From Acidobacteriota bacterium (lineage in GTDB: Bacteria; Acidobacteriota; JAAYUB01), in assembly GCA_018001935.1 (NCBI GenBank), contig JAGNHB010000003.1:120975-184974 (forward strand): 64,000 nucleotides of DNA. Reading direction: 5' to 3'. The position numbers were made by a program, and so were the translations under genes. Numbering within the stretch: position 1 is the stretch's first letter; every line of letters starts with the position of its first letter. Positions 1 through 53,023 of this stretch are shown here, piece by piece. Under the pieces are notes generated by a model. The model saw only the letters and a program-made list of their open reading frames with translations, was not told the DNA's origin and made no database searches.

Positions 1-3000
1 ACGTCGCAGAGGGAGACGGCCTCGGGGTTGAGGACGTGCCAGGTCTGTCCCGTGAGCCCGGGGCGAAGGGCCAGCGTGAGGACCGCCCGGCTGGTGCCGT
101 CCACGAAGGAGAGGTCGGCGCGGTCGTACAGGTCGGGGACCGCCCCCAGGTTGACGTAGGCCCGCACCTGCTGGAAGAAGCCGTTGTCTCCGATGTTCTC
201 CTGGCAACGCCCGGTCTCCGAGTCGAAGGTGATGTTGCCCAGCCGGTAGATGGAGGCCGGGACCCCGTCCCGCATGGCCTGCCGCACGAGGCCCTCCGCT
301 TCCAGTTTCGTCTCCAGGTAGAGGTTGCCGGAGCGCTGGCCGACGTCCCCGGTGTACTCGGTGAATAGGAGCTGCGACACCCCGGGGACGTCCCCCCACC
401 CCACCGAGAGGGTGGACATGTGGTGAAAGGCCTTGGGCCGGCCGGTGCGCGCCAGGGCCAGGAGGTTGGCCGTGGCGGTCACGTTGGCCTTCTCGAACTC
501 CTCCCGGAGGCCGTAATGCTTCACCAGCGCCGCCGGGTGGAAGATCGCCTCCACCCCCGAGGCCAGGTCGGCGTAGGCGGCGTCACCCAGGCCGAGGTTC
601 GGGCTGCCCAGGTCCCCCGGCAGCGCATCCAGGCGGTCGCGGTGCGCCGCGAACCACCCCTTCCCGAAGTAGAAGTCCAGCTTGTCGGCCAGCCGCCGGG
701 CGGCCTGCTCCGCCGAGTCGGCCCGGACCACGGTCCGGACCCTGCCGGGGTTCGCCCCCGGAACCCGCCCCTCCACCAGGTCGCGAACCAGGTAGGCTCC
801 CAGGAAGCCCGTGGCGCCCGTCACCAGGACGTCTCCCCACCCTCGCGGCGGCCCGGGGTCGAGGGCCGCCTCGTCGGCGATGCGCCGGCGGTACTCCGCC
901 ATCGCCCCCTCCAGGCCGGATGGGACCTCCGGCTCCGCTTTCGCCGTCTCGCCCAGCGTCCGAAGCGCTTCCAGGCGGAGGCGAATGTTGTCCTGCAGCG
1001 GCTTGACCCGCAGCGCCAGCTCCGCCACCGTCTGGGCGGTGAAGACGTCGTTGACCGTGACCTCGAACTCCTTCTGAAGCAGCGCCACCAGGGCAACCGC
1101 CTTGAGCGAGTGCCCCCCGAGGCTGAAGAAGTTGTCGTAGACCCCCACGTCCGAGAGGCCCAGCACCTTCTCCCAGGCGGCCGCCACCGCCGCTTCCACG
1201 GGGTTGCGGGGCGCCACGTGCACCACGGCGGCGTCGCAGACCTGCTCGGGCTCGGGGAGGGCCTTGCGGTCCACCTTCCCGCTGACGTTGAGCGGGAACG
1301 CCGCCAGACGTACGAACACCGCCGGGACCATGTAGTCGGGCAGCCCCGTCGCCAGTTCACGCTTCACGGCCTCGAGGTCCAGGCCGGCCGCCGACTGCAG
1401 GTAGCCCACCAGGAAGGCGTTCCCGCCGGCGTCGGTCTTCGCCAGGACGACGGCGTTCTCCACGCCCCCCACCTGGCGGAGGCGGCTCTCGATCTCCTCC
1501 AGCTCGATGCGGAAGCCGCGGATCTTCACCTGGAAGTCCTTGCGGCCGATGAAGTCCACGTTGCCGTCGGGGAGCCACCTCGCCAGATCCCCCGTCCGGT
1601 ACATCCGCTCGCCGGGCCGGAAGGGGTCTTCCACGAATTTTTCCGCCGTCAGCTCCGGCCGGTTGAGGTACCCCAGCGCCAGCTGCGCGCCGGCGATGCA
1701 CAGTTCCCCCGGCACGCCCACGGGCAGCAGTTTCCCGCCGGGGTCCAGGATGTAGACCCGCGTGTTGGCCACGGGCCGGCCGATGGGGGACTTCGCGTGG
1801 GGGCGTTCCACCACGAAGGCGGTGGCGTCCACCGTGTACTCGGTGGGGCCGTACTCGTCCACCAGGACGTAGTTGCGCGGCGTGAACTTCTTCAGCTTCT
1901 CGCTCCCCGTCGAGAGCCGGCGAAGCGAGCGGTTGTCCGTGTTCTCCATGAAGGCCTCGCACAGCTGGGTGGGGAGGTCCGTGTAGGTGACGCCGTGGGT
2001 CTCGAGGTACCGGTTGAGGGCCCCCAGGTCGAGGCGGACGCCCTCGGGCAGCACGTGGAGGCAGGCCCCGGCCGCCAGCGGGGAGAAGATCTCCACCACC
2101 GAGGCGTCGAAGCTGAAGGAGGCGTACTCGGCGCAGACGTCGTCGGGCGTCAGGCCGTGGAAACGGGCGTGCCAGGTCACCAGGTTGACGACGCCCCGGT
2201 GGGGGATCATCACCCCCTTGGGTTTCCCCGTGGAGCCCGAGGTGTAGATGACGTAGGCCATGTCCGCCGGGGTGCCGGACGTTGACGGGTTGGCCGTCCC
2301 GCCCGACCAGAGGGACGCCTCGTCCAGCTCCCACACCGTCCCCCCGAAGGTGACGGACGGCCGCAGCGACCGCTGGGTGAGGAGGAGGGCCGCGCCGGCG
2401 TCCTCCAGGATGGTCAGGACCCGCTCGGGCGGGTAGTGGGGGTCGATGGGGACGTAAGCCCCGCCGGCCTTGAGGACGGCCAGCATGGCCGCGATGCCGT
2501 CGGCGCCCCGTTCCACCCGGAGGCCGACGAGGGGACCCTTCCCCGAAAGTTCCCCGCGGAGGCGGTGGGCCAGGGCGTTGGCCCGGGCGTTGAGGGCGGC
2601 GTAGGTGTAGTGGGTGTCCCCGTCCACCAGGGCCGTCCGGTCCGGCCGGCGGGCCGCCTGTTCCTCCACGAGTTGGTGGAGCAGCTTGTCGGACGGGACG
2701 TCCATGGCGGTGTCGTTGAAGGTCTCCAGCAGCAGGCGCCGCTCCTCGGCGGAGAGGATGTCGATGTCGCCCAGCGGGGTTTCGGGCGCGCTGGTGACCC
2801 GCTCCAGGAAACGGAGGTAGTGTTCCGCGAAGCGACGGGCGGTCTCGGGGAGGAAGAGGTCCCGACGGTACTCCAGCCGGAGCGTGTACGCCCCCGCCGA
2901 CGACAACGCGAGTTCCAGGGCCAGATCGAACTGGGCGTCCCGGGTCTCGTGCACCATCATGTGCAGGCGGAGGTCCCCCGACGACACCTCGCCGGCGAAG

Positions 3001-6000
3001 TCGTCGATGGAGAACATGGTCTCGAACAGCGGGTTCCGGCCGGCTTCACGGGGAAGGCCGAGGGTGTCGATGAGGTCGTCGAGCGGGTAGTCCTGGTTGT
3101 CGTACCCGCCCAGGACGGCGTCCCGCACCCGGGAGAGGAGGTCCCGGAACGCGGCCGCCCGGGGGGTGGCCAGGCGGAGGGGCAGGCTGTTGACGAACAT
3201 GCCGATGATCCCCTGCAGGGCGGCGCTGACGCGGCCCGAGGAGGGGACGCCCACCACGACGTCCTCCTGGGAGGTGTAGCGGCCGAGCAGCGCAGCGTAA
3301 GCGGCCAGGTAGACCATGAAGGCCGTGGTCCCGGTCTCGCCGGCCAGGCGGTCGACCGCGGCGGAAAGGCCCCCGGGCACGGCCCGCACGAAGACGTCCC
3401 CCTGCTCCCCGCCAAAGGCGCCCCGGGGGAAATCGACGGGGATCTCCAGCCGGGGCGGCTCCTCCCGGAAACGGTCCGTCCAGTAGGCTTTCTGGTCGGC
3501 AAAAGCGCCCGATCGCCGCGCCGCGTCCTGCCAGACGGCGAAGTCGCGGTACTGGAGCGGCAGCGGGGGGAGGCCCCGATCGACGTACAGGTCCAGCAGT
3601 TCGTTCAGCAGGATCCCCACCGAGAGCCCGTCGAAGATGATGTGATGAGCGTCGAAGAGGAGGACGTGGGCGTCCGGGCCCAGTTTCAGGAGTTCCACGC
3701 GGAACAGCGGCGGCCGGGCGAGGTCGAAGGGTCGCACGAAGGCGCGGAAGCGTTCGGTCACCTCGTCGGGCGAGGCCTCGGAACGGACCATGCGCACCTT
3801 GACGTGGGCCCGGACGCGCTGGACCGGCTCCCCCTCGTGCAGCTCGAAGCCCGTGCGGAAGGACGCGTGGCGCTCGGTGAGGGCCTCTACGGCCGCGGCC
3901 AGCCGGCCGGCGTCGAGGGGGCCGTCGATGCGGAGGACCATGGGGAGGTTGTAGGACAGGCCCGAACGCCCCATGCTCTCCACGGCGTAGAGCCGCTTCT
4001 GGGCCGAGGACGCGGGGTAGAACTCCCGCTCGGGGACCGGGACCAGCCGGGCGTGGGGGGAGGTGCTCCCGGACTCGACCCGGGCGGCCTGCCCTTCCAC
4101 GGTGGGCGTGTCAAAGAGGGCCTGCAGGGGCAGCTGGACCCCGAAGGCCTTCTCCATGGCCGCCTGGAGCATGACGGCCCGGAGGGAGTGGCCGCCGAGG
4201 GAGAAAAAGTTCTCGTCCACCCCGAAGCGGGAAACCCCCAGCACCCCCTGCCAGAGTTCGACGAGCTTCGCCTCCGTGGGTGTGGACGGGGCCTTGACGG
4301 GGCGGTCCCGGTCGACGGGGGGGCCGGGGTCCGGCAGGGCCCGGCGGTCCACCTTGCCGTTGGGGGTGAGGGGCAGCACGGGCAGCCGCACGATCCGGGC
4401 CGGGATCATGTAGGCCGGCAGCGGTTTCGCCAGGGCCTCCCGGACCGCGTCGTCGGAGAGGTCGGTCTCCGTCACGACGTAGGCGCACAGCCAATGGTCG
4501 CCTCCCTCGCCGCGAGCCGTGACCACGGCGTCCTTCACGCCGGGGACCAGGAGCAGCTGGGCCTCGATCTCCCCCAGCTCCACCCGGAAACCCCGCACCT
4601 TGACCTGGAAGTCGATCCGGCCCAGGAACTCGAGGTTGCCGTCGGGGAGCCAGCGGGCGAGGTCCCCCGTCCGGTAGGCGCGGAAACCGTGGCGGAACGG
4701 GTCGGGGATGAACTTCTCCGCCGTCAGCTCGGGCCGGTTCCGATATCCGCGGGCGGTCCCGAGGCCCGAGACGCACAGTTCGCCGGCGGCGCCGGGCGGC
4801 TGCTCCCGCCCCGCGGGGTCCAGGATGTACACCCGCGTGTTGGGGACGGGGCGGCCGATGGGGATGTTGGCCCAGGGCCGGGTCACCTCGAACCTGGTGG
4901 CCTCCACCGTGTACTCGGTGGGGCCGTAGGCGTTGACGATCCGGTAGGGCCGTTTCCGAACGGACCGGAGCTTGTCGCCGCCCATCTCCAGGCAGCGCAG
5001 GGTCCGGTTGTCGCACAGTTCCATGAACTGCTCGGCGAACTGGGTGGGGAGGATGCTGAGCGTGACGCCGTTCTCCTCGAAACAGGCGTTGACGTCCCGG
5101 GGCGACAGGCGGCTTTCCGCGGGGACCACCACCAGGCACCCGCCGGCCGAGAGGATCGGGAAGAACTCGATAACGCTGGCGTCGAAGGCGAAACCGGCGA
5201 ACTTGGACTGGCGGTCCTCCGGCGTCATGCCCTCGAAATCCGCCTGGTAGCGGCAGAGGTGGACGAGGGAGCGGTGGCTGATCTCCACGCCCTTCGGCTT
5301 GCCCGTGGTCCCGGAGGTGTAGATGACGTAAGCGGCGTCCCCGGGGTCGTTCACCGGCGGGAGCGGCGAGGGGTCCCCGGTGAAGGTCTCGTCCGCGTCG
5401 AGGAGGAGGACCGGCCCCTCGAAACCGGCCTTCCCCGCCAGGTGCCGCTGGGTGAGGAGCGCCGGTACCGCCCCGTCTTCCAGCATGTAGCGGACACGGT
5501 CGGGGGGGTAGGCCGGGTCGACGGGCAGGTAGGCCGCCCCCGCCTTCTGGATGGCGAGCAGGCCCAGCGGCATTTCCAGGCAGGGGTCCAGCAGGATGCC
5601 CACGCAGCCGTTCCGCGCGGCGCCCAGCTCCCGCAGCCGCCGGGCCAGGGCGTTGGACTTTTCGTCCAGTTCCCGGTAAGTCAGGATCTTCTCCCGGAAC
5701 CGGACCGCCGGCCGATCCGGGTGACGGGCGGCGGTCTCCGCGAAGAGGGAGACGAACGTCCGCTCCACGTCGTAGGGGACCTCGGTTGAATTGAAGCGGT
5801 CCAGCAGGGCCCGGTCCTCCGGCGAGACGAAGGGGAGGGCGTCGAAGGGCGTCCCGGGCGACCGCAGCCCCCCCTCCAGCAGGAGGGTCACGGCCCAGTG
5901 CAGGGCCTCCACGTGGCCTATGGTGTACAGATCCTCCTGGAACTGCCAGTCGAAGATCACCTGCCCATCCCGCTCCCGTCGGACGAACAGGGTCAGGGGC

Positions 6001-7130
6001 TGGGCTTTCTCCGCGGAGCCGAGGATCTCGATTTCGACCTCCGTCGGCTGTTCCGAAGAAACGACGGTGACACACCAGTTGAGCAGGAAGGCGGGGCTCT
6101 GGTTCCAGGCGGACTGGAGCGAGTCGGACAGCACGTCGAAGGGCAGCCGGCCATGGCGGCGCGCATCCGCGCGAGCGGCGCCCACCCGCTCCACGAAAGC
6201 CCCGAAGGGTTCGCCGTCCCGGACCTGGAGGCGGACCGGCACGGCATTCAGGTGACACCCGACCGTCTCCTCCGCCCGGGGACCGACCCGGCCGTCCAGG
6301 AAAAGCCCCAGGACGAAGTCCTCGACGCCGAGGGCCCGTCGGCAATAGGCCGCCGAGGCCGCGAGCACCAGGTCCTCCAGGGCCGCATCGGTGGGGGCCT
6401 GCTCCCGAAAAAGCGCCGACAGCCCGGGGGGCGCCGGCCGGCGGAGGGCGCCGGCCCGGGGCGTCGGCGCCCGCTCGGTGGAGAAGGTCGGGCTCACCGC
6501 CTCGGGCGGGGTTCGGAAACGGTCTTCCCACCAGGCCGCGTCGGCTTTCCCCTCCGGCCCGGCCAGGTAATCCAGCTCCTTTTGCACCCGGGACTCGAAC
6601 GGCGCGGCCTCGGGGGCTCCCGCGGGCCCACCGCGGGAGAGCGCCTCGGCGTCCCGAAGGACCTGGCTGAACACGGCCCGCGCGCTGTACGGGTCGCACG
6701 CCAGGAAATGGGCCTTGAAGAACCAGGCCGGCCGCCCCTCGTCGGAGCGGAGGAGCACGATTTCCGCCAGGGGCCCGCCCTCGAGGTCGAAGGGCGTTCG
6801 CGCCCGCTGGCGGGCCCACTGCTCCATCTCCTCCTCGCCGCGGTTCGTGCCGAAATACCGTTCCTCGATCCGGACGTCCCCGGGGGCGGCGACGGACTGC
6901 CGGACGCCCGAGGGGTCCTCCGACCCGAAGTGGTGAAGCCGAAGCCGGAGGGCGTCGTGGCGGGTGAAGACCGCCCGGGCGGCTTCCCGGAGGTGCTCGA
7001 CGTCCGCCCCGCCGGGGTGGCGGGCCAGGACGGCGACGTGGTTGACGGCCGAACCGGGCCGGGAGCGCTCCACCCGCCAGATCTGGCGTTGGGCGTGAGA
7101 CAGGGCGAAGGCTTTCTCGGTTTCGGACAC
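1..7130 (-). CDS. Non-ribosomal peptide synthetase, two modules plus terminal reductase (C-A-T-C-A-T-R); 3' end runs off the window at position 1
   Basis: Hand translation of minus frame (codon starts = 2 mod 3; this frame is absent from ORF track because the ORF is open to the window edge). GTG start at 7130 preceded by TAGGAGG (SD overlapping stop of upstream MFS gene). N-terminus VSETEKAFALSHAQRQIW...FTRHDALRLRLHH = C-domain C1/C2 motifs; A3 core AYVIYTSGTTGKPKGV (~5290-5330) and ADMAYVIYTSGSTGKPKGV (~2215-2250); A8 YRTGDLARWLPDGNLEFLGRIDFQVKVRGFRVELGEIE (~4620-4740) and YRTGDLARWLPDGNVDFIGRKDFQVKIRGFRIELEEIE (~1510-1620); T motifs DENFFSLGGHSLRA (~4190) and DNFFSLGGHSLKA (~1100); second C domain HHIIFDGLS (~3640); C-terminal region LVTGATGFLGAYLVRDL ... 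YLETKLEAEG = Rossmann GxTGFLG + YxxxK of NRPS thioester reductase domains (~36-840). Confidence 0.9.
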   Translation of the reverse strand, partial: MSETEKAFALSHAQRQIWRVERSRPGSAVNHVAVLARHPGGADVEHLREAARAVFTRHDALRLRLHHFGSEDPSGVRQSVAAPGDVRIEERYFGTNRGEEEMEQWARQRARTPFDLEGGPLAEIVLLRSDEGRPAWFFKAHFLACDPYSARAVFSQVLRDAEALSRGGPAGAPEAAPFESRVQKELDYLAGPEGKADAAWWEDRFRTPPEAVSPTFSTERAPTPRAGALRRPAPPGLSALFREQAPTDAALEDLVLAASAAYCRRALGVEDFVLGLFLDGRVGPRAEETVGCHLNAVPVRLQVRDGEPFGAFVERVGAARADARRHGRLPFDVLSDSLQSAWNQSPAFLLNWCVTVVSSEQPTEVEIEILGSAEKAQPLTLFVRRERDGQVIFDWQFQEDLYTIGHVEALHWAVTLLLEGGLRSPGTPFDALPFVSPEDRALLDRFNSTEVPYDVERTFVSLFAETAARHPDRPAVRFREKILTYRELDEKSNALARRLRELGAARNGCVGILLDPCLEMPLGLLAIQKAGAAYLPVDPAYPPDRVRYMLEDGAVPALLTQRHLAGKAGFEGPVLLLDADETFTGDPSPLPPVNDPGDAAYVIYTSGTTGKPKGVEISHRSLVHLCRYQADFEGMTPEDRQSKFAGFAFDASVIEFFPILSAGGCLVVVPAESRLSPRDVNACFEENGVTLSILPTQFAEQFMELCDNRTLRCLEMGGDKLRSVRKRPYRIVNAYGPTEYTVEATRFEVTRPWANIPIGRPVPNTRVYILDPAGREQPPGAAGELCVSGLGTARGYRNRPELTAEKFIPDPFRHGFRAYRTGDLARWLPDGNLEFLGRIDFQVKVRGFRVELGEIEAQLLLVPGVKDAVVTARGEGGDHWLCAYVVTETDLSDDAVREALAKPLPAYMIPARIVRLPVLPLTPNGKVDRRALPDPGPPVDRDRPVKAPSTPTEAKLVELWQGVLGVSRFGVDENFFSLGGHSLRAVMLQAAMEKAFGVQLPLQALFDTPTVEGQAARVESGSTSPHARLVPVPEREFYPASSAQKRLYAVESMGRSGLSYNLPMVLRIDGPLDAGRLAAAVEALTERHASFRTGFELHEGEPVQRVRAHVKVRMVRSEASPDEVTERFRAFVRPFDLARPPLFRVELLKLGPDAHVLLFDAHHIIFDGLSVGILLNELLDLYVDRGLPPLPLQYRDFAVWQDAARRSGAFADQKAYWTDRFREEPPRLEIPVDFPRGAFGGEQGDVFVRAVPGGLSAAVDRLAGETGTTAFMVYLAAYAALLGRYTSQEDVVVGVPSSGRVSAALQGIIGMFVNSLPLRLATPRAAAFRDLLSRVRDAVLGGYDNQDYPLDDLIDTLGLPREAGRNPLFETMFSIDDFAGEVSSGDLRLHMMVHETRDAQFDLALELALSSAGAYTLRLEYRRDLFLPETARRFAEHYLRFLERVTSAPETPLGDIDILSAEERRLLLETFNDTAMDVPSDKLLHQLVEEQAARRPDRTALVDGDTHYTYAALNARANALAHRLRGELSGKGPLVGLRVERGADGIAAMLAVLKAGGAYVPIDPHYPPERVLTILEDAGAALLLTQRSLRPSVTFGGTVWELDEASLWSGGTANPSTSGTPADMAYVIYTSGSTGKPKGVMIPHRGVVNLVTWHARFHGLTPDDVCAEYASFSFDASVVEIFSPLAAGACLHVLPEGVRLDLGALNRYLETHGVTYTDLPTQLCEAFMENTDNRSLRRLSTGSEKLKKFTPRNYVLVDEYGPTEYTVDATAFVVERPHAKSPIGRPVANTRVYILDPGGKLLPVGVPGELCIAGAQLALGYLNRPELTAEKFVEDPFRPGERMYRTGDLARWLPDGNVDFIGRKDFQVKIRGFRIELEEIESRLRQVGGVENAVVLAKTDAGGNAFLVGYLQSAAGLDLEAVKRELATGLPDYMVPAVFVRLAAFPLNVSGKVDRKALPEPEQVCDAAVVHVAPRNPVEAAVAAAWEKVLGLSDVGVYDNFFSLGGHSLKAVALVALLQKEFEVTVNDVFTAQTVAELALRVKPLQDNIRLRLEALRTLGETAKAEPEVPSGLEGAMAEYRRRIADEAALDPGPPRGWGDVLVTGATGFLGAYLVRDLVEGRVPGANPGRVRTVVRADSAEQAARRLADKLDFYFGKGWFAAHRDRLDALPGDLGSPNLGLGDAAYADLASGVEAIFHPAALVKHYGLREEFEKANVTATANLLALARTGRPKAFHHMSTLSVGWGDVPGVSQLLFTEYTGDVGQRSGNLYLETKLEAEGLVRQAMRDGVPASIYRLGNITFDSETGRCQENIGDNGFFQQVRAYVNLGAVPDLYDRADLSFVDGTSRAVLTLALRPGLTGQTWHVLNPEAVSLCD

Positions 7131-7139
7131 GTTGACCTC

Positions 7140-8546
7140 CTAGTGGGCGCGGTGCGCGCCCGGACGGGAAGCCGGCCGGGCGACCAGGGCGGTGGCCAGG
7201 ACGGCGAGGCCGAAGAGGACCCCGGCCAGGGCCGCCCGGTGGTAACCGGTGAGGACGAGGGCCGCCGGGGCCGCGGTGTTTGCCGCCCCCGCCGGGAAGG
7301 GGGAGGAGAAGACGGCCTCGAAGAGGCAGACCCCCAGCGTGGACCCGAGGAAGGTGAAGAGAGCGTTGGCGGCCGACACGATCCCCTCCTCGCCGGGGGG
7401 CGCGAGGTTCATGACCAGGGTGGACACCGCGGCGAAGAACGCCCCCAGGGCGGCCCCGTAGAGGGCCAGCGCCGCGATGACGACCCCGTAGCCCGTTCCG
7501 GATCCGAACAGGAGGAAAAGGGCCGTCGAAGCCACCATGGCGGCGGCGGACAGGATGCAGACCCGGCGGGGCCCCACCCGGTCCACCCAGGCCCCGAGGA
7601 AGGGCCCCAGGACGGCCGAGACAGCGGGGAAGACGATGAGGAGCAACCCGATGCGGTCGGGCGTCAGGCCGCGGACGCCGTCGAAATAGAAGGGAAACAG
7701 GAAGCTGTAGCCGTCCAGGAGCAGGGTCGAGGTCAGGGTCCCGAGCAGGGCGGCCGTCAGGTTGCGATCGGAGAAGATCCGCAGGTTCAGGACCGGCGAC
7801 GGCGCCCTGCGCTCGCGGACCACGAAGAGGACCCCGGCCAGGAGGGCGACGGCCGCGGACCCCAAGGCGCCGTGCCCGACCCACCCGTAGTCCTGGGCGG
7901 TGTTGATGCAGTAAATGAAGGCCCCGAGGGCGACGAAGCTGAGCGCCGCCCCGGCGAGATCGAAGCTTTTCCGTTCGCCGTCGCCGGCCCGGTCCCGGGG
8001 GAGGCCCAGCCAGGCCAGCAGGGCGCCCGCCACGCCGGCGGGGACATTGACGAAGAAGACCCAGCGCCAGTCGAGGTAGTGAAGAAGGAACCCGCCCACG
8101 GGGGCCCCCAGGGCGACCCCGACGCTGCCGAAGACGGCCAGGATGCCGAACGCCCGCCCCCGCACCGCCTCCGGCAGGTGCTGAACCACCACGGCGTTGG
8201 CGGTGGCGAAGATCATGGCGCCGCCCACGCCCTGCAGGAAGCGGAAGGCGCAGAGGGCCGGGAGGCCGGGGGCGAAGCCGCACGCCAGGGACCCCAGGGT
8301 GAACAGGACGTACCCCGACCCAAGGACCGTCCGGCTCCCCCAGCGGTCGGCCAGCTTCCCGAAGGTTGGCAGGAAGGCGCACAACGCGAGGAGGTAGAGC
8401 AGGACGGCCCAGCTCACGGCGCCGGTCTCGACCCCGAAGACGCGCGAGAGCGTGGGGAGGGCGATGTAGACGATGGTGGCGTCCAGGTTGGCCATGAAGA
8501 TGGCCATGGAGACGGTGAGCACGACGCGGCGGAAACTCAAGGGCAC
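7140..8546 (-). CDS. MFS transporter (DHA/drug-H+ antiporter-like, ~14 TM)
   Basis: ORF-track 468 aa, highly hydrophobic with repeated GxLaDrxGrr-like MFS signatures (FGKLADRWGSR; GAWVDRVGPRR); stop TAG 7140-7142 overlaps SD of downstream NRPS start (GTG 7130). Confidence 0.85.
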   Translation of the reverse strand: MPLSFRRVVLTVSMAIFMANLDATIVYIALPTLSRVFGVETGAVSWAVLLYLLALCAFLPTFGKLADRWGSRTVLGSGYVLFTLGSLACGFAPGLPALCAFRFLQGVGGAMIFATANAVVVQHLPEAVRGRAFGILAVFGSVGVALGAPVGGFLLHYLDWRWVFFVNVPAGVAGALLAWLGLPRDRAGDGERKSFDLAGAALSFVALGAFIYCINTAQDYGWVGHGALGSAAVALLAGVLFVVRERRAPSPVLNLRIFSDRNLTAALLGTLTSTLLLDGYSFLFPFYFDGVRGLTPDRIGLLLIVFPAVSAVLGPFLGAWVDRVGPRRVCILSAAAMVASTALFLLFGSGTGYGVVIAALALYGAALGAFFAAVSTLVMNLAPPGEEGIVSAANALFTFLGSTLGVCLFEAVFSSPFPAGAANTAAPAALVLTGYHRAALAGVLFGLAVLATALVARPASRPGAHRAH

Positions 8547-8610
8547 GCTCCTTCGAGGGGTGAAGGCATTGTACCCCGCGGGCCGCTCCCGGGCAAGACG
8601 GATGCGAGCC

Positions 8611-8770
8611 CCGCGAACCCGTCAAAAAGTCGCCAATTGGAGATTTCCCGCGAATAACGCCGATTGACCCGAATACAGAAAACAAAGAAATAAAATGACT
8701 TTTCACATTCCGATTCGCGACGATTCGCGTGATTCGCGGGCTGCAAGGGACTTTTTGCGGGGGACGTCAA
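8611..8770. repeat. Copy A of a ~150-190 bp intergenic palindromic element family (GATTCGCG-rich; shared core AAAAGTCGC..GGAGATTTCCCGCGAATAAC..TTCCGATTCGCG..GATTCGCGTGATTCGCGGG..GACTTTTTGCGGGGG)
   Basis: Near-identical stretches recur at 14920-15105 and 46395-46530; element ends are inverted repeats of each other (CCCGCGAATCACGCGAAT / ATTCGCGTGATTCGCGGG; CAAAAAGTCGC / GCGACTTTTTG). Confidence 0.75.
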
Positions 8771-8846
8771 AAGTCATTGACGCATCCCCCGGTTTCCCGA
8801 TAACATACCGTTGCTTCTCATCAGACAGCTTTCCGTGGAGACAAGC

Positions 8847-10184
8847 ATGAACCAGCCGTCCCGGATTCCCCGCACCCCGTTTCGCTGCCGGCTGTTGCCG
8901 GTCCTGACGCCCCTGCTGCTTTGGCTGCCTTCCGGTTGCGGCAGGGGGGGAGGAACCCCGCCCGGCGGGGTGGGCACCGCCCCGCCCATGACCGTGATGG
9001 TCACGGCAGCCCAGACGTGCAACGTACCCTACTTCAGCGAGTTCGTGACGTCCCTGGACGCCGGCACCAGCGGGGAGACGGTGGAGATCCGCGCCCGGGT
9101 GGAGGCGGTCCTGGTGCAGCAGCATTTCTCAGAGGGGCAGCCGGTGCGGAAGGGGCAGGTCCTTTTCACCCTCGACAGTCGCACCTACGAGGCGGACCTG
9201 AAGACCGCCCGGGCCGGTTTGAGCAAGGCGAAGGCCGACCTCGAGTACGCCCGGAACCAGGTGCTGGTGGAGCAGGCGAAGGCCGACCTCGAGTCCGCCC
9301 AGGCCCAGCTCGCCCTCGCCCGGGTCAACGAGGCGCGGCTCAAACCCCTGGCGGAACAGAAGGCGGTCCCCCAGCAGGATTACGACGACGCGGCCACCGC
9401 GCTGCTCACCGCATCGGCCGCCGTGAACGCCAAGAAAGCCAACCTCGACACCGTGGCGCTCAACCGGAAAGTGTCCATCGAGCAGGCCGAGGCCGCGGTC
9501 CTCTCCGCCGAGGCCGACATCCGGCGGGCGGAGATCAACCTGGAGTACTGCACCGTCTGTTCCCCCATCGCCGGCCTGGCGGGCCGCCGCCAGGTGGCGC
9601 CCGGGAACCTGGTGGGCCACGGGGAGGCGACCCTGCTGACCTCCGTCTCCGCCCTGGACCCCGTGCGGGTGACCTTCAGCATCTCCGAGACCGACTACCT
9701 CCGGCACATGGAGATCGTGAAGCGCCAGGGGCAGGACACCGGCAGCCTGGAACTGGAACTCCTTCTCTCGGACGGGAAGAGCTACCCGCACAAGGGTCGG
9801 ATCCTCGTCGCCGACCGGGCCGTCGACGCCCGGACCGGGACCCTGTCCATCATCGGGGAATTCCCCAACCCGGACCGGCTTCTCCGTCCCGGCATGTACG
9901 GGCGGGTCCGCTTCCGGAGCTTCCGGATGGAAAACGCCCTGGTCATTCCCCTGAAGGCGGTGGGGGACCTCCAGGGGGCGAAGACGGTCCTGGTGGTGGG
10001 GACCGACGGCAAGGTCTCGCTCCGGACCGTCAGGCTCGGCCCGGCGTGGGGCGAACGGGTCGTGGTCCTCGAGGGGCTCAAGGCGGGGGAGAACGTGATC
10101 GTGGAAGGCCAGGTCAAGGCCCAGCCGGGGATGACCGTGAAACCCCAGGCGCAGCCCATGCCGGCGGGCGGGGAGGACCGGTGA
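8847..10184 (+). CDS. RND efflux membrane fusion protein (periplasmic adaptor, AcrA/MexA family), lipoprotein
   Basis: ORF 8811..10184; ATG 8847 with GGAG 8 nt upstream; lipobox LPSGC; coiled-coil region (LKTARAGLSKAKADLEYARNQ...) and C-terminal beta-barrel/MP domains typical of HlyD_D23 adaptors; stop TGA overlaps next start (gTGATGg). Confidence 0.85.
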   Translation: MNQPSRIPRTPFRCRLLPVLTPLLLWLPSGCGRGGGTPPGGVGTAPPMTVMVTAAQTCNVPYFSEFVTSLDAGTSGETVEIRARVEAVLVQQHFSEGQPVRKGQVLFTLDSRTYEADLKTARAGLSKAKADLEYARNQVLVEQAKADLESAQAQLALARVNEARLKPLAEQKAVPQQDYDDAATALLTASAAVNAKKANLDTVALNRKVSIEQAEAAVLSAEADIRRAEINLEYCTVCSPIAGLAGRRQVAPGNLVGHGEATLLTSVSALDPVRVTFSISETDYLRHMEIVKRQGQDTGSLELELLLSDGKSYPHKGRILVADRAVDARTGTLSIIGEFPNPDRLLRPGMYGRVRFRSFRMENALVIPLKAVGDLQGAKTVLVVGTDGKVSLRTVRLGPAWGERVVVLEGLKAGENVIVEGQVKAQPGMTVKPQAQPMPAGGEDR

Positions 10185-11653
10185 TGGGACGGCGCACCCG
10201 GCTCCCCTCCCTCGCGGTACCCGTCCTGGGGGTGCTGCTGGGGATGCTGCAGGCCGCCTGCCTCGGGCCGAAGTACGTCCGGCCCACCGTGCCCGTCCCG
10301 GACGCCTTCCGCGGGGCGGAGACCGCCCCGGTTGAAGCGTCGGGGAAGACCTACGGCGACCTGGGCTGGGAGGAGATCTTCAAGGACGAGACCCTGCGGG
10401 GCCTGATCCGCCGGGCGCTGGAGCACAACCCCGACGCCCGGCTGGCGGCCGAGCGGATCGAGGAGGCGAGGGCCTCCCTCCGTATCACGCGGTCCGCGCA
10501 GTACCCGACGGCGTCCGGCGCCGCGGATTTCCAGGCCTGGCGGGACTCCGGCGCCACCAGCGGCGCCTATCCCGGCGCGGAGCGGACCACCTCCTCCTTC
10601 GAGTCGTACGTCCAGGCCGTGTTCGAGCTGGACTTCTGGGGCCGCCTGAGACGCTCCACCGAGGCCGCCCGGGCCCAGCTCCTGGCCACGGAGGAGGCGC
10701 GGCGGACCGTGGCGCTCGGGTTGACGGCCGAGGTGGCCACGGCCTACCTCAGCCTGCGGGAGATGGACCTGGAGCTGGAGATCTCCCGGAAGACCCTGGC
10801 ATCGCGCCTGGAGTCGCTCAAGCTGGTGAAGGCACGCCAGGAAGGCGGGGTCGCCACCCTGCTGGACGTGGACCAGGCCCAGGGGCTCGTGGACCAGGCC
10901 CGCACCACCATCGCCGGACTCGAGCGGCAGGCCGCCCAGCAGGAAAACTACCTCTGCGTCCTCCTGGGGTCGAACCCCGGGGACATCCCGCGGGGAAAAC
11001 CCGTCACGGAGCAGATGGACGCCCCGGAGGTCCCGCCGGGCCTCCCCTCCGGGCTGCTGGAGCGGCGGCCGGACATCCGGCGGGCAGAGCAGAACCTGAT
11101 CGCCGCCAACGCCGGGGTCGCGGTGGCCCGGGCCGAGTACTTCCCGAAGTTCACCCTGACGGGTTCCGCCGGCACCCTCAGCGAGGACTTCAACCACCTC
11201 TTCTCCCGCTCCAGCCTGACGTGGAGCGTCATGCCGCAGCTCACCGTTCCGGTCTTCAACGCGGGGAAGGTGAAGGCCGGCGTGAGGCAGGCGCGGTCGC
11301 GGTACCGGCAGGCGCTCATCACGTACGAGCAGACCGTCCTGCAGGCGTTCCGGGAAGTGGCTGACGCCCTAGTGGGCTACGCCAAGCAGCGGGAGTACCG
11401 CCGGCTCCAGGAGTCGGCCACCGCCACCCTCGCGGACCAGGCCCGCCTGTCGAACCTGCGGTACTCGGGGGGCGTCACCAGCTACCTGGAGGTCCTGGAT
11501 TCCGAGCGGCAGTACTTCAGCGCCCAGCTGACCCTGGCCCAGGCCGTCCGCGACGAGTTCGGGGCGCTGGTCTATCTCTACAAGGTCCTGGGCGGCGGGT
11601 GGAAGGCCGCCGCTTCCCCGGCCGGGGCGCCCGCCCCGTCGCCGGGCCCCTGA
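10184..11653 (+). CDS. Outer membrane efflux protein (NodT/OprM family, RND OMF lipoprotein)
   Basis: In ORF 8921..11653 frame (N-terminal 420 aa of that ORF is out-of-frame read-through of the MFP gene). Real start ATG 10184 (ATGA overlap with MFP stop). Lipobox LQAAC; two OEP repeats (LRITRSAQYPTASGAADFQ... / EYFPKFTLTGSAG...) and C-terminal VLGGGW typical of OprM/NodT. Confidence 0.85.
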   Translation: MGRRTRLPSLAVPVLGVLLGMLQAACLGPKYVRPTVPVPDAFRGAETAPVEASGKTYGDLGWEEIFKDETLRGLIRRALEHNPDARLAAERIEEARASLRITRSAQYPTASGAADFQAWRDSGATSGAYPGAERTTSSFESYVQAVFELDFWGRLRRSTEAARAQLLATEEARRTVALGLTAEVATAYLSLREMDLELEISRKTLASRLESLKLVKARQEGGVATLLDVDQAQGLVDQARTTIAGLERQAAQQENYLCVLLGSNPGDIPRGKPVTEQMDAPEVPPGLPSGLLERRPDIRRAEQNLIAANAGVAVARAEYFPKFTLTGSAGTLSEDFNHLFSRSSLTWSVMPQLTVPVFNAGKVKAGVRQARSRYRQALITYEQTVLQAFREVADALVGYAKQREYRRLQESATATLADQARLSNLRYSGGVTSYLEVLDSERQYFSAQLTLAQAVRDEFGALVYLYKVLGGGWKAAASPAGAPAPSPGP

Positions 11654-11686
11654 CCGTCCGCCAACGCCGTCGACCGAGGAAGAGGA

Positions 11687-14600
11687 ATGGCCAAGTTTTT
11701 CATTAACCGCCCCATCGTCGCCATGGTGATCTCCATCGTGATCGTTCTCGCGGGGGTCGTCTCCCTCGGCGGGCTCCCCGTGGCCCAGTACCCGGACATC
11801 GTGCCGCCCGAGATCCTCGTGTCGGCCTTCTTCACCGGCGCCGACTGCCAGACGCTGGAGCAGGCGGTGGCAACCCCGCTCGAGCAGCAGATCAACGGCG
11901 TGGACAACATGCTCTACGTGCGGTCCACCAATGGCAACGACGGGTCCATGGCCCTCACCGTGGACTTCGCGGTGGGCACCGACGTCAACACCGACCAGGT
12001 GCTGACGCAGAACCGGGCGTCCCAGGCCACCGCCTCCCTCCCCGAGGACGTCAAGGCCTACGGGGTGACCGTGCAGAAGTCCACGTCCACCCTCCTGTTC
12101 ATTTACTCCCTCTACTCGCCGGACAACGTCTACGACCGCCTCTTCCTCTCCAACTACGCCTACATCAACCTCAACGACGCCCTCCTGCGGGTGCCGGGGG
12201 TGAGCCAGGTGTCCGTCCTGGGGGCTTCCCCCTACGCCATGCGCGGCTGGCTCGACCCGGGGAAGCTGGCCCGGCTGAACCTCACCATCGAAGACGTCGT
12301 CTCCGCCGTCAAGGAACAGAACAACGCCAACCCCGCCGGGCAGATCGGCACCGAGCCCGCCCCGCCCGGCCAGCAGTTCACCTACAGCGTGCGGGCGCAG
12401 GGCCGGCTGGTGCAGGCGGAGGAGTTCGGCGAGGTCGTGATCCGGGCCAACCCCGACGGCTCCATGGTCCGGCTCAAGGACGTGGCGAGGCTCGAACTCG
12501 GGGCCCAGTTCTACAACACGGTGGGCCGCTACAACGGAGCGCCCGCCGCCCTCGTCGCCGTCTACCAGGCGCCGGGCTCCAACGCCCTGGAGGTGGCCGC
12601 GGGGGTCAAGCAGGCCATGGCGGACCTCGAAAAACGCTTTCCCCCCGGGCTGAAGGCCGTCCTGTCCCTGGACACCACCCTGGCGGTCAGCTCGGGTATC
12701 GAGGAGATCGTCGTCACGCTGCTGGAAGCCATGGTGCTGGTGATCCTGGTGGTCTACCTGTTCCTCCAGAGCTGGCGCGCCACCCTGATCCCCCTGCTCA
12801 CGGTGCCCGTCTCCCTGGTGGGGACCTTCATGGTCTTCCCCCTGCTGGGTTTCTCCATCAACACCCTCACCCTCTTCGGGATGGTCCTGGCCGTGGGGTT
12901 GGTGGTGGACGACGCCATCGTGGTGGTGGAGGCGGTGGAAGCCCACATGGAGCGGGGCCTCGACCGGAAGGCCGCCACGCTCAAGGCCATGGAGGAGGTC
13001 ACCTCCCCCGTCGTGGCCGTGGCGCTGATCCTGGCGGCTGTCTTCGTCCCGGTGGCCTTCATGGGCGGGATCACGGGGCGGCTCTACCAGCAGTTCGCCC
13101 TCACCATCGCCATCTCGGTGCTCATCTCCGCCTTCAACGCCCTGACCCTGAGCCCCGCCCTCTGCTCCCTCCTCCTCAAGCACCGGGGCGACAAGGGGAA
13201 AAAGAGCCTCCTGGGCCGGTTCTTCGGCGGCTTCAACCGGGTCTTCGACCGGGCGGTCGATGGCTACGTGGGGATCTCCCGCTTCCTCGTCCGCCGCACC
13301 GTGCGGACCTTCCTCCTCCTGCTGGCCATGACGGGCGGCATGCTCTTCATCGGGGCGAAGCTCCCCGGCGGCTTCGTGCCGGACGAGGACCAGGGCTACT
13401 TCTTCCTCAACGTCTCCCTTCCCGAGGCGGCCTCGCTGCAGCGCACCGACGCCCTCATGCGGAAGGTGGAGCAGGTGCTGGAGAAGACCCCCGGCATCGA
13501 GGGGTACACCACCATCAGCGGGTTCAGCCTCCTGAGCGGGGTCAGCAGCACCTTCACCGGTTTCGCCTTCGTCACCCTCAAGCCCTGGGACGATCGGAGG
13601 GGGCCGGGGGAGGACGCCAAGTCGATCCTCAACGGCCTCAACCGCAAGCTGTCGTCCCTCCCGGAGGCGATGGTGTTCGGCTTCCTCCCCGCGGCCATCC
13701 CCGGCGTCGGCAAGTCCGGCGGTTTCAGCTTCATGCTCCAGGACCGGAGCGGGGGCGACGTCAAGTTCCTGGCGGACAACGTGGACAAGTTCCTCGACGC
13801 CGCCCGGAAGCGGCCGGAGCTGGCCAACGTCAGCACCATGTTCCGGGCCGAGGTCCCGCAGCTCTACGCGGACGTGGACCGGCCCAAGTGCGCCAAGCTG
13901 GGCGTGGACGTGGGGAGCGTCTACCTGACCCTCCAGACCTTCCTGGGCGGGTGCTACGTGAACGACTTCAACCGTTTCGGGCGGCAGTGGAAGGTCTACC
14001 TCCAGGGGGCGCCCGACGACCGTGTGCGGCGGGAGGACATCGGGAAGTTCTTCGTCCGGGCGGGCGACGGGACCACCGTGCCGCTCTCGTCGGTGGTCAC
14101 CATCCGGGAGACCAACGGGCCCGAGTTCACCAACCGTTTCAACCTCTTCCGCGCCGCGGAGATCAACGGGTCCGCCGCGCCCGGCTACAGTTCCGGGCAG
14201 GCGATGAACGCCCTGGAGGAGGTGGCGAACACGGTCCTCCCCCGCGAGATGGGCTACGACTGGAGCGGCATGTCCTACCAGGAGCGGAAGGCCCCCGCCT
14301 CGGCCGGCGTCTTCGCCCTCTCCCTCGCCTTCGTTTTCCTGATCCTGGCAGCCCAGTACGAGAGCTGGTCGCTGCCCTTCAGCGTGCTTCTCGGCACGCC
14401 CGTCGCCGTGCTGGGCGCCTTCGTCGGCCTGCTGTCCCGGCGGCTCGAGAACGACGTCTTCGCCCAGGTCGGGCTCGTCATGCTGGTGGGGCTCGCCGCC
14501 AAGAACGCCATCCTCATGGTGGAGTTCTGCAAGGCGGAGCTGGAGAAGGGGCGTCCCCTCGTCGACGCCGCCCTGGCCGGCGCCCGGGCCAGGCTGCGGC

Positions 14601-14875
14601 CCATCCTCATGACCTCCTTCGCCTTCGTCCTGGGCTGCGTCCCGCTCTGGGTGGCCCAGGGCTCCGGGGCCATCTCCCGCCAGATCCTGGGGACGGTGGT
14701 CATCGCGGGGATGCTGGCCTCCACCCTCATCGGCATCTTCGTCGTTCCCGTCCTCTTCGTCCTGGTGGAGTCTTTGGCGCACCGGAGGGGGAAGGCCCCC
14801 GCGCCTCCGGCGGAACCGGGGAATCCGGTCCCCGCACCGCCGGGCGGGGAAGCGCAGTGTCCACCCGCGGAGTGA
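11687..14875 (+). CDS. RND multidrug efflux pump, inner-membrane transporter (HAE1/AcrB family)
   Basis: 1062 aa; N-terminus MAKFFINRPIVAMVISIVIVLAGVVSLGGLPVAQYPDI is the canonical AcrB start; 12 TM with two large periplasmic loops; RBS GAGGAAGAGGA. Confidence 0.95.
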   Translation: MAKFFINRPIVAMVISIVIVLAGVVSLGGLPVAQYPDIVPPEILVSAFFTGADCQTLEQAVATPLEQQINGVDNMLYVRSTNGNDGSMALTVDFAVGTDVNTDQVLTQNRASQATASLPEDVKAYGVTVQKSTSTLLFIYSLYSPDNVYDRLFLSNYAYINLNDALLRVPGVSQVSVLGASPYAMRGWLDPGKLARLNLTIEDVVSAVKEQNNANPAGQIGTEPAPPGQQFTYSVRAQGRLVQAEEFGEVVIRANPDGSMVRLKDVARLELGAQFYNTVGRYNGAPAALVAVYQAPGSNALEVAAGVKQAMADLEKRFPPGLKAVLSLDTTLAVSSGIEEIVVTLLEAMVLVILVVYLFLQSWRATLIPLLTVPVSLVGTFMVFPLLGFSINTLTLFGMVLAVGLVVDDAIVVVEAVEAHMERGLDRKAATLKAMEEVTSPVVAVALILAAVFVPVAFMGGITGRLYQQFALTIAISVLISAFNALTLSPALCSLLLKHRGDKGKKSLLGRFFGGFNRVFDRAVDGYVGISRFLVRRTVRTFLLLLAMTGGMLFIGAKLPGGFVPDEDQGYFFLNVSLPEAASLQRTDALMRKVEQVLEKTPGIEGYTTISGFSLLSGVSSTFTGFAFVTLKPWDDRRGPGEDAKSILNGLNRKLSSLPEAMVFGFLPAAIPGVGKSGGFSFMLQDRSGGDVKFLADNVDKFLDAARKRPELANVSTMFRAEVPQLYADVDRPKCAKLGVDVGSVYLTLQTFLGGCYVNDFNRFGRQWKVYLQGAPDDRVRREDIGKFFVRAGDGTTVPLSSVVTIRETNGPEFTNRFNLFRAAEINGSAAPGYSSGQAMNALEEVANTVLPREMGYDWSGMSYQERKAPASAGVFALSLAFVFLILAAQYESWSLPFSVLLGTPVAVLGAFVGLLSRRLENDVFAQVGLVMLVGLAAKNAILMVEFCKAELEKGRPLVDAALAGARARLRPILMTSFAFVLGCVPLWVAQGSGAISRQILGTVVIAGMLASTLIGIFVVPVLFVLVESLAHRRGKAPAPPAEPGNPVPAPPGGEAQCPPAE

Positions 14876-14919
14876 GCGGAGGCCCCGAGCGCAAGCCGGC
14901 GTTGATGGGCCCGCAACAA

Positions 14920-15105
14920 GTCTTTTTTGCCCGCGAATCACGCGAATGAACGCGAATCAACAACTGACGGGGCCGCAAAAAGTCGCGAAAGGGAGATTTC
15001 CCGCGAATAACACGAATAATATCTAGTAGTTTTTGAATTCTGATTCGCGTTTATTCGCGTGATTCGCGGGCAAAATGCGACTTTTTGCGGGGGTGTCAAC
15101 GTTCG
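14920..15105. repeat. Copy B (most complete) of the GATTCGCG-rich palindromic intergenic element
   Basis: Left arm CAAGTCTTTTTTGCCCGCGAATCACGCGAATGAACGCGAATCA is the reverse complement of right arm TGATTCGCGTTTATTCGCGTGATTCGCGGGCAAAATGCGACTTTTTGCGGGGG; nested IR CCGCAAAAAGTCGCG / CGCGACTTTTTGCGG; matches copies at 8611-8770 and 46395-46530. Confidence 0.75.
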
Positions 15106-15214
15106 GGGAGCCGGGATTCACGAATTCGCTTGACTCCCTGAAGCGTTTCGCCTATTTTCGCCCTTTTCAGGGGCAGCGAAAGACCGATAACCTATCCATA
15201 TTCGGGGAGGAGCC

Positions 15215-15649
15215 ATGAAACAAGGCAAAAAGTGTGACGTTCAGAATGAATGTCTTTCAACACCGGCGGATGCGATGATGGCCGTGGCCATCCTTGCCGT
15301 TTCCTCGGACGGCAAATTGGCCAAGCGGGAGATGGACGGCTTGAAGAGCATTCTGGTTTCCAGTGAGCTTTTCAGGAAAGTGGAAGACCCCGGGGAGTAC
15401 ATTCGACACATCGCCTCCAGCCTCATCGAAAAAGAGTACGACGACGTCCTGGACGCGGTGACGGCCCTGCTCTCGCCGAGTCTCCGGGAGACGGCCTATG
15501 CCTGGGCGGTATACATGGTGGCGGTTGACCGCAAGCAGGTGGGTCCGGAACACTTTTTCCTGGAAAAACTGCGAAAGAAACTGGGGATACACGTGGCCCT
15601 GGCCGGAAAAATCAAGGCGGTGGTCCCGATGTTGATCCGTACAAAATAA
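15215..15649 (+). CDS. TerB-like (tellurite-resistance TerB family / DjlA N-domain-like) protein
   Basis: 144 aa ORF in a locally lower-GC stretch; pattern AMMAVAILAVSSDGKLAKREMDGLKSIL ... ETAYAWAVYMVAVDRK resembles the paired helical TerB fold signature; RBS GGGGAGGAG upstream. Confidence 0.45.
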   Translation: MKQGKKCDVQNECLSTPADAMMAVAILAVSSDGKLAKREMDGLKSILVSSELFRKVEDPGEYIRHIASSLIEKEYDDVLDAVTALLSPSLRETAYAWAVYMVAVDRKQVGPEHFFLEKLRKKLGIHVALAGKIKAVVPMLIRTK

Positions 15650-15933
15650 CGCATTCGTCGCGCCAGGGGTGGGGGGGCCGCCCCTGGGAGTCTTCGAGAG
15701 GGCGCGCTGGGCCGGGTTTTGAAGAGAGGTCCCGGGCATCGGTGGATGGCTGAAGCCTCCGGGCCGATCTGTCGCTCCAAGCGTAATCCCTGGTTTGCCC
15801 CAAAGAGTGCAGACATCAAACGGTGGGCGCCTTGCGGAACGTCAGGGCGCCCACCGCTTTATATCCGGTTTTCTCAGACGCCCGGCCGGGGTGGTGCCGG
15901 CGGACATGGCACGCTTTCAAAATATTTTTTCGA

Positions 15934-15968
15934 GTTCATCGTTGACAAAACGGGGGTCCGGATATAAA
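15934..15968 (+). promoter_or_regulatory. Candidate sigma70-type promoter for the small secreted-protein gene
   Basis: TTGACA (15934-15939) - 16/17 nt - TATAAA/ATAAAA in an AT-rich stretch about 35 nt upstream of the start. Confidence 0.35.
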
Positions 15969-16001
15969 ACGCAGACAGATTCATCACGAATGGAGGGAAT
16001 T

Positions 16002-16532: not shown

Positions 16533-16570
16533 CCGCCGACCGTTCCTCCCAGCCCGAAAACCCTCAACCA

Positions 16571-16618
16571 GGACACCGGCCCCATGACCCGATCGGGCCG
16601 GTGTCCTCTTTTTTTTCG
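16571..16618 (+). terminator. Rho-independent terminator
   Basis: GGACACCGGCCC-(12 nt loop)-GGGCCGGTGTCC followed by TTTTTTTT, just after the stop at 16532. Confidence 0.75.
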
Positions 16619-16718
16619 GAAAGACTTTCCACGGTTCGGGCCATCTCCCGGTATAAGAAGTTGTCGGGGGAGAGCCGACGGTGACCTCCCCGCAATACGT
16701 CGCGAAGGGGAGACCGAA

Positions 16719-24114: not shown

Positions 24115-24136
24115 GGGTTCCTCCCGTATCTCGTTG

Positions 24137-25318: not shown

Positions 25319-25443
25319 GGCCCACCCCCGTGCAAGTCGTGTGAATCCGCGGCCCCCGGAGGGCGCACGAATCCGTCTGCCGGGCCGCCAGGCGCCGGCC
25401 GGTCGGGGCTCGTCGATGCGTTGTCATGGGAACTCTCTTCGCG

Positions 25444-46382: not shown

Positions 46383-46394
46383 GTTTGATGCTCC

Positions 46395-46530: not shown

Positions 46531-46544
46531 CCCTCTTCGAGGCC

Positions 46545-46585: not shown

Positions 46586-46675
<90 letters not shown>

Positions 46676-53019: not shown

Positions 53020-53023
53020 ACCA

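Follow-up and report, generated by a model that had tools for sequence, protein, structure and literature searches.

Dipeptide aldehydes and pyrazinones are products of small nonribosomal peptide synthetases (NRPSs) and serve as protease inhibitors and signals. In gut bacteria, NRPSs for these compounds with the domain order condensation (C), adenylation (A), thiolation (T), C, A, T, and thioester reductase (R) were reportedly described by Guo et al. in 2017, and the ruminopeptin NRPS is said to have been described by Schneider et al.; such gut clusters typically contain a transporter and a phosphopantetheinyl transferase (PPTase). The C-A-T-C-A-T-R arrangement is the canonical architecture for pyrazinones and dipeptide aldehydes (PMC10979478, PMC8210680, PMC12327764). 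According to these papers, the gut-bacterial enzymes comprise this core including the N-terminal C domain, are encoded in small clusters, and yield dipeptide aldehydes that are either free or N-acylated, the latter being documented via PMC8210680. AusA/PznA, the aureusimine synthetase of Staphylococcus aureus (R structures 4F6C and 4F6L), has the shorter order A-T-C-A-T-R and releases a dipeptide aldehyde that cyclizes to a pyrazinone. Here, we analyzed a 64,000-nucleotide stretch of the genome of an uncultured Acidobacteriota bacterium (contig JAGNHB010000003.1, positions 120,975 to 184,974; hereafter the window), the left end of which encodes a dimodular NRPS with the C-A-T-C-A-T-R core. The NRPS gene is coupled to a gene for an exporter of the major facilitator superfamily (MFS), and its product carries an additional C-terminal domain with a cyclic-nucleotide-binding (CNB) fold.

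On the minus strand, the frame from position 7139 to position 3 is open throughout for 2379 codons, 2376 of which are counted from a GTG start at 7130. The program-made list of open reading frames (ORFs) skips this frame solely because it runs past the window end, which agrees with the initial annotation, where an NRPS of more than 2370 amino acids had been derived by hand translation. The G+C content at third codon positions (GC3) of the frame is 0.93, with a coding-type pattern at the first and second positions (GC1 and GC2), and the shadow ORFs in the other frames are GC2-rich. The high G+C content of the window (0.61–0.74) gives rise to many long spurious ORFs. Directly 5' of the GTG start lies TAGGAGGTCAAC, the TAG of which is the stop codon of the MFS gene (7140–7142). 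In this context (CAC-TAG-GAGGTCAAC-GTG), the MFS stop forms part of an AGGAGG Shine-Dalgarno sequence, and 9 nt separate the MFS stop from the NRPS start. An independent gene call on a 100% identical contig (L002, from Logan) placed the same MFS stop and the same NRPS start 9 nt apart. The two genes are thus tightly coupled, as had been read from the window before.

Pfam searches of the NRPS identified two Condensation (8e-146), two AMP-binding (6e-163), two AMP-binding_C, and two PP-binding domains, and a NAD_binding_4 domain (4e-44; profile positions 1–256 of 258). The E-values over all NRPS domains ranged from 1e-17 to 1e-163, which rules out that the domains were assigned by chance, and the architecture proposed initially was recovered in full. 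The core motifs of the A domains, both carrier serines, the core motif of the second C domain (C2), and the GATGFLG and YxxxK motifs of the R domain are all intact. Hence, the features that characterize dimodular NRPSs with reductive release are all present, namely two A-T modules together with an LCL-type C domain, both carrier serines, and a terminal R domain with GxxGxxG and the Tyr/Lys pair. With group-specific hidden Markov models (HMMs), C2 scored 480 bits for LCL and 338 bits for DCL; its best solved structure was TycC (2JGP, 341 bits), whereas the starter domain RzmA-Cs reached only 68 bits. By these scores C2 is clearly of the LCL type, which fits the lack of an epimerization domain in this NRPS. 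The solved structures nearest to the R domain were those of MxaA (4U7W, 2e-34) and the AusA R domain (4F6C, 9e-23), with which the catalytic Tyr and Lys align, and the mycobacterial Nrp reductase is likewise among its closest relatives. The expected terminal thioester reductase is therefore in place.

The best curated full-length model for the NRPS was that of AusA (NF047350), which matched amino acids 287–2380 with 1268 bits and thus far below the equivalog cut-off of 2500 bits. Both enzymes are dimodular and end in a thioester reductase. However, AusA lacks the N-terminal C domain and the CNB tail, originates from a different phylum, differs in its A-domain codes, and has no coupled MFS gene.

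The alignment used to extract the specificity codes of the A domains reproduced the GrsA code DAWTIAAICK and yielded DAIIEGAVEK for A1 and DAVDSGEVDK for A2. An assignment of substrates was dropped because these codes fit no code that could be named with confidence. Seven of the ten positions in the A2 code agree with Glu/Gln codes; this agreement was not used, since the acidic residues of A2 could be just as compatible with a basic side chain. As a lead only, the acidic residues in the pockets point to substrates with polar or cationic side chains.

The remaining 242 codons of the NRPS gene lie to the left of window position 1 and encode the C-terminal subdomain of the R domain and the CNB domain. 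They were recovered from contig L002, which agrees with the window in all 8737 shared bases and reaches 1026 bp further left. On this contig the NRPS comprises 2618 amino acids, and PF00027 (cNMP_binding) follows the R domain with 44.9 bits (cut-off 27.5). The stop codon is located 727 bp left of position 1. The cluster had been expected to continue leftward from the R domain; the assembly line itself extends there only by the end of this gene, and after a spacer of ~235 bp another gene begins at the contig end. Two repeats were observed in this part of L002: a 9-bp tandem repeat (CTGTCTGAC, five copies) downstream of the NRPS stop at 9517–9562, and a near-reverse-complement repeat (GGTCCGACA, 3.4 copies) at 9733–9763 in the start of the next ORF, where it encodes SDRSDRSDRS and where the contig breaks. 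CNB-less C-A-T-C-A-T-R relatives from Saccharibacillus, Paenibacillus, and Clostridium are plain enzymes of ~2260–2480 amino acids. The available papers on the gut NRPSs, with which we compared by description, name no cNMP-binding-fold domain (PMC10979478, PMC8210680, PMC12327764). No description of an NRPS with a cyclic-nucleotide-binding domain was found in the literature, coverage of which was incomplete, and within the reach of these searches there is no earlier account of a sensor domain joined directly to the release domain of an NRPS.

The best solved matches of the CNB domain were CRP/FNR effector domains (2PQQ, 1e-13; Mycobacterium tuberculosis Crp, 3MZH, 1e-10), with which it shares the fold family and a long terminal helix. 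An AlphaFold2 model of the R-CNB fragment of the family member P0391 showed a beta-sandwich and a 25-residue terminal helix (pLDDT 70–89); with a pTM of 0.55, the domain folds in this model are credible, whereas the inter-domain packing is unreliable and was not used. These matches, together with a PF00027 score above the gathering threshold, would be in line with a true cAMP or cGMP receptor that switches the reductase on or off. We regard such a receptor as quite improbable. In the phosphate-binding cassette of the window protein, Glu is replaced by Leu and Arg is out of register. The Arg is also absent in nearly all family members, which have a conserved (S/T)(A/V)E(A/S) in its place, and many CRP/FNR effector domains bind other ligands. 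Classical cAMP/cGMP binding is unlikely because of this non-canonical cassette. In addition, the tail differs from CRP/FNR proteins in having no DNA-binding domain and in its fusion to an NRPS reductase. The CNB domain is thus most likely a regulatory or dimerization module rather than a classical cAMP sensor, and a different ligand, dimerization through the helix, and docking of partner-switching proteins are live options for its function.

The N-terminal condensation domain (C1) is the first domain of the assembly line, and the operon contains no upstream module, as the NRPS starts directly behind the MFS stop. The initial annotation had called it a starter C domain and deduced N-acylation of the product. 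Its position is that of a starter domain, and the nearest solved structures are the likewise N-terminal starter domains RzmA-Cs (7C1H, 75 bits) and CdaPS1-C1 (4JN3, 69 bits). By the solved structures, C1 does not look like an elongation-type domain, because the LCL-type TycC scored only 34.5 bits with C1 compared to 341 bits with C2 as a control. However, the scores with the starter domains are low as well. In a reference set of 1248 C-family domains from 271 NRPS proteins (270 from the database and the window protein), RzmA-Cs picked a clear N-terminal clade at 142–214 bits, whereas C1 of the window ranked 269th with 74 bits. The group HMMs gave 202 bits for LCL, 197 bits for DCL, and 170 bits for the starter type (Cs). 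C1 thus appears to belong to neither the LCL nor the DCL type, and it does not group within the RzmA-like clade. The flat score profile is common to all C1 domains of the NRPS-CNB family introduced below and marks them, at the sequence level, as a group of their own.

The active-site motif of C1 reads HFLACDP instead of HHxxxDG, with the second His replaced by Phe and the Gly by Pro. The second His is absent in only 16 of the 1248 C-family domains, and HHxxxDG is kept in C1 of all 24 other dimodular family members, leaving the window protein as the sole exception among 25. Moreover, C1 is the fastest-diverging domain of the protein: its identity to the C1 domains of the family is 22% compared to 30% among the others (ratio 0.73), while the corresponding ratios of the other domains are 0.92–0.98. 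In RzmA-Cs, the second His positions donor and acceptor, the H140V mutant formed product in extremely low yield only, and the donor is admitted only if the Gly position of HHxxxDG carries no side chain (PMC7804268). Acylation by the window copy is doubtful because C1 has lost both residues and diverges fastest; N-acylation has probably been lost or become very weak, which we infer from the motif and do not regard as demonstrated. Neither an exact DNA search nor two scans with C1 for close relatives gave a match in the GTDB species genomes or the JGI metagenomes, which thus include neither the source genome nor its close kin. A protein search of the whole database with C1 was uninformative, as giant synthetases topped the summed scores with best identities of 21–29%. 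Most of the 16 domains without the second His, namely 9, are N-terminal C domains. The loci L031 and L032 have the C1 motif HSLILDG, and the N-terminal C domains of P0154, P0193, P0248, P0067, and P0111 carry a motif of the PxLCxDA type; N-terminal C domains without catalytic function may thus form a class.

If C1 were nevertheless a working starter condensation domain, as in the initial model, the product would be an N-acyl dipeptide aldehyde and thus a stable protease inhibitor. We consider this doubtful, although the position of C1, its nearest structures, and the intact motif in every other dimodular family member agree with it, a ligase similar to PaaK and F390 synthetase in some of the family loci could supply an acyl donor, and RzmA-Cs with the H140V exchange retains trace activity (PMC7804268). 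Against it stand the two substitutions in the motif, the faster divergence of C1 than of the rest of the NRPS, and its low rank and flat profile in the comparisons above. Furthermore, no tailoring, ligase, fatty acyl-AMP ligase, acyl carrier protein, PPTase, or partner-switching genes occur within the window; the search for tailoring or acyl-activating genes that had been recommended found none to the right of the NRPS, although starter C domains do not in every case need a gene for acyl-donor supply in the cluster.

Taken together, we think it rather probable that the locus is an intact MFS-NRPS operon, in which a C-A-T-C-A-T-R-CNB line makes a free dipeptide aldehyde that is prone to pyrazinone formation and is exported by the MFS protein, with acylation weak or absent and the CNB domain in a regulatory or dimerizing role. 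Following established NRPS logic, A1 and A2 would adenylate two amino acids, which would be loaded on T1 and T2 and joined by the LCL-type C2. The NAD(P)H-dependent terminal reductase would then release the dipeptide from its thioester, giving an aldehyde or, if a second reduction follows, an alcohol. Weak or absent acylation by C1 would leave the N-terminus of the product free, and the resulting dipeptide aldehyde would tend to cyclize to a dihydropyrazinone or pyrazinone, as proposed by likeness to AusA and consistent with the literature on this architecture (PMC10979478, PMC8210680). The co-translated exporter, which resembles DHA2 transporters, would carry the product across the inner membrane.

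Several points weigh against this reading. The product class is deduced from sequence and architecture, neither A-domain code pairs with an assignable code, and two-electron release as an aldehyde is not distinguishable from four-electron release as an alcohol in the sequence. As RzmA-Cs is still slightly active when its second His is mutated (PMC7804268), C1 may by analogy still acylate slowly, and there is no close relative (best identity 41%) by which selection on C1 could be gauged. The CNB domain lies outside the window and is known from one contig, which may share its sequencing run with the source genome. Finally, the window contains no PPTase, though nine family loci have one. This lack, the degenerate and fast-evolving C1, and the lack of close relatives would also agree with a decaying gene, in which the residue loss in C1 is the first step of pseudogenization and nothing is made. 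Decay appears very improbable to us, as all 2618 codons are open with a GC3 of 0.93, the core motifs of the A, T, C2, and R domains are all intact, and the coupled start with the MFS gene is preserved. The window protein also shares the invariant residues of five aligned R-CNB tails, which it does by construction. We thus favor an intact operon for a free dipeptide aldehyde, and the window copy, the only one without the catalytic motif, provides a natural test of the role of N-terminal C domains.

The five aligned tails (C-terminal subdomain of R plus CNB) are those of the window protein and four relatives and were used to scan the GTDB species genomes. A homologue search with the R-CNB tail had given only three proteins and missed the query itself, and it was the genome scan with a degenerate pattern that revealed the family. 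The scan returned 176 relatives, 80 of which were fetched and annotated with locally built HMMs. The R-CNB fusion was present in ~49 of these 80 loci. Complete C-A-T-C-A-T-R-CNB genes encoding ~2600 amino acids numbered 25 (24 fetched loci and the window gene), and some family variants are C-A-T-R-CNB or trimodular. No whole-protein homologue of the window NRPS exceeds 41% identity; the top one, P0115, stems from another Acidobacteriota metagenome-assembled genome (MAG) and matches the NRPS in architecture, with PF00027 included. The hosts belong to more than 10 phyla, methanogens among them, and comprise Bacteroidota, Geobacter/Trichlorobacter, many Desulfobacterota, Gammaproteobacteria, Bacillota and Negativicutes, Acidobacteriota, Riflebacteria, Synergistia, and Methanomicrobiales. 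Besides many MAGs, they include the cultured strains Desulforhopalus vacuolatus DSM 9700 and Methanospirillum lacunae Ki8-1. The A-domain codes vary among the members, with DVVHVGEMAK, DLTKIGEVGK, and DFWSTGMVHK recurring, so that the family does not make one single product.

Clustering of the neighboring ORFs revealed two layouts. In type I, a DHA2 MFS gene, the NRPS gene, and a gene for an Sfp-type PPTase follow each other, and the window locus fits the MFS-NRPS core of this type. A PPTase was found in 9 family loci, mostly directly downstream of the NRPS. In type II, the NRPS is followed by a MatE::HATPase_c_2 fusion, a PaaK/F390-synthetase-like ligase and, in part, NMT1, a SpoIIE phosphatase, and STAS. 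In type II loci (L025 at 11058–17946, L034, L047, L037, L042, and L044), the ligase is encoded together with a MATE transporter that carries a fused RsbW-like HATPase_c_2 kinase domain; several loci (such as L025, L034, and L047) additionally have genes for a SpoIIE phosphatase and an NMT1-like protein, and a STAS protein is encoded in L025 and L034 as well. By their predicted domains, these neighbors are a partner-switching module beside the NRPS. Complete MFS-NRPS(-PPTase) cassettes were also observed in Methanospirillum and other Methanomicrobiales archaea (L053 at 3212–11047, L040, and L038), and the sequences suggest inter-domain horizontal transfer.

As far as our searches reach, the fused CNB domain, the broad and patchy distribution, and the link with signaling genes are unreported features. 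We tentatively propose, as a possibility that we rate below even chances, that the C-A-T-C-A-T-R-CNB enzymes are ligand-gated or partner-regulated assembly lines, in which a CRP-like sensor on the release domain times the production of a peptide aldehyde, and which were passed on horizontally among anaerobes in more than 10 phyla, methanogenic archaea among them, often in connection with SpoIIE/STAS/RsbW-like modules. If this were true, the products could form a conserved class of signaling or protease-controlling metabolites, and the acidobacterial enzyme, in which C1 would be dead, could be seen as a variant with acylation naturally switched off. With ~50 family genes, some of them in cultured strains, post-translational control of nonribosomal synthesis would become directly testable. 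Taken alone, the window locus is a small NRPS cluster of an ordinary kind, the starter domain of which is broken, and the family that it revealed is of greater interest.

The MFS exporter is best read from a TTG start at 8540, which gives the 466-residue deposited protein P0271. With 225.7 bits against TIGR00711 (DHA2), it scored just under the cut-off of 230.2, and homologues with 31–43% identity directly adjoin the NRPS in 10 other family loci. A further contig (JGI 3300075153, with P0274) encodes a 48% identical MFS protein flanked on one side by STAS and dCache-HAMP-SpoIIE phosphatase genes, and on the other by LuxC/LuxE-like acyl reductase and synthetase genes and a HATPase_c_2 protein. 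By gene content, this locus has the same transporter/partner-switching theme with a different aldehyde-forming enzyme.

Divergently from the MFS-NRPS operon, the window encodes a complete tripartite efflux system of the resistance-nodulation-division (RND) type with a membrane fusion protein (MFP), an outer membrane efflux protein (OMF), and an AcrB-type pump (Table 1). The unusual position of the OMF gene in the middle, pointed out initially, agrees with the Pfam matches and coordinates. Conceivably, this operon is a dedicated second export stage, which would move the product across the outer membrane after the MFS protein had delivered it to the periplasm. A diderm host needs an outer-membrane route, and the two operons are adjacent and share a 306-bp region with promoter-like sites in both directions and short repeats. 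However, none of the ~49 family loci has an MFP, OMF, or RND homologue (E ≤ 1e-10) in the 10 kb flanking the NRPS, where the MFS gene is conserved, and RND pumps are common housekeeping efflux systems. A dedicated RND stage is thus unlikely, and the coupling of the NRPS to RND exporters that had been assumed is not upheld by the related loci; we retain the MFS protein as the predicted exporter.

Within the shared intergenic region (8541–8846), we observed three direct GATTCGCG repeats ~10 bp apart (near 8706–8738). Another element, CGTCAAAA(A)GTC, occurs twice, near 8620 and near 8766, and its second copy forms the palindrome CGTCAA-N6-TTGACG over the -35 element of the plus-strand promoter-like site. 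From their sequence and arrangement, these repeats are possible operator sites. Rfam searches found no element in the region.

Table 1 Features of the NRPS locus at the left end of the window.
Feature	Position	Strand	Basis and remarks
NRPS, first 2376 of 2618 codons	3..7130	-	Open frame; Pfam; full length from identical contig L002
Thioester reductase (R), NAD(P)H-binding part	3..833	-	GATGFLG at 798-818, YLETK at 306-320; domain cut by window edge
T2 carrier	1005..1214	-	Pfam; GGHSL serine motif at 1098-1118
A2 adenylation (aa 1496-1956)	1263..2645	-	Pfam; code DAVDSGEVDK
C2, LCL-type elongation condensation	2706..4055	-	HHIIFDG at 3627-3647
T1 carrier	4077..4292	-	Pfam; GGHSL serine motif at 4176-4196
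A1 adenylation (aa 471-930)	4341..5720	-	Pfam; code DAIIEGAVEK
C1, N-terminal condensation (aa 1-450)	5781..7130	-	Degenerate HFLACDP at 6690-6710
DHA2/EmrB-like MFS exporter, 466 aa, TTG start	7140..8540	-	MFS_1 Pfam 9e-60; 100% identical to deposited P0271
Divergent intergenic region	8541..8846		One promoter-like site each way; short repeats
HlyD-type membrane fusion protein (MFP)	8847..10184	+	Pfam; not conserved with the NRPS family
Outer membrane efflux protein (OMF), OEP x2	10184..11653	+	Pfam; start overlaps MFP stop (TGATG)
RND (AcrB-type) inner-membrane pump	11687..14875	+	ACR_tran 1106 bits, profile positions 1-1020 of 1021

The part of the window beyond the RND operon, on its right side, contains housekeeping genes, including those for an extracytoplasmic function (ECF) sigma factor, asd, aspartokinase, an ABC transporter, and DnaJ. 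The RND gene is followed by a stretch of lower G+C content (0.625) at 14876–16532 with small ORFs that lack Pfam matches and a CARDB-domain ORF (15723–16529), after which the ECF-type sigma factor is encoded at 16533–17342. On the minus strand at 21636–25423, genes for an aspartate-semialdehyde dehydrogenase, an aspartokinase with ACT domains, and a pyridoxal phosphate-dependent enzyme of Cys/Met metabolism were found, which have no evident link to the NRPS. The stop-to-stop ORF 45489–46652 is overlapped at its 5' end by a tRNA-Ser(GGA) gene on the minus strand (46586–46675), and the true start of this methyltransferase-like gene must therefore be further downstream. Two large secreted-type proteins with dockerin type I domains are encoded near the right end of the window, one with beta-propeller and CarboxypepD_reg domains (52586–55621) and one with five Calx-beta repeats (57065–59656).

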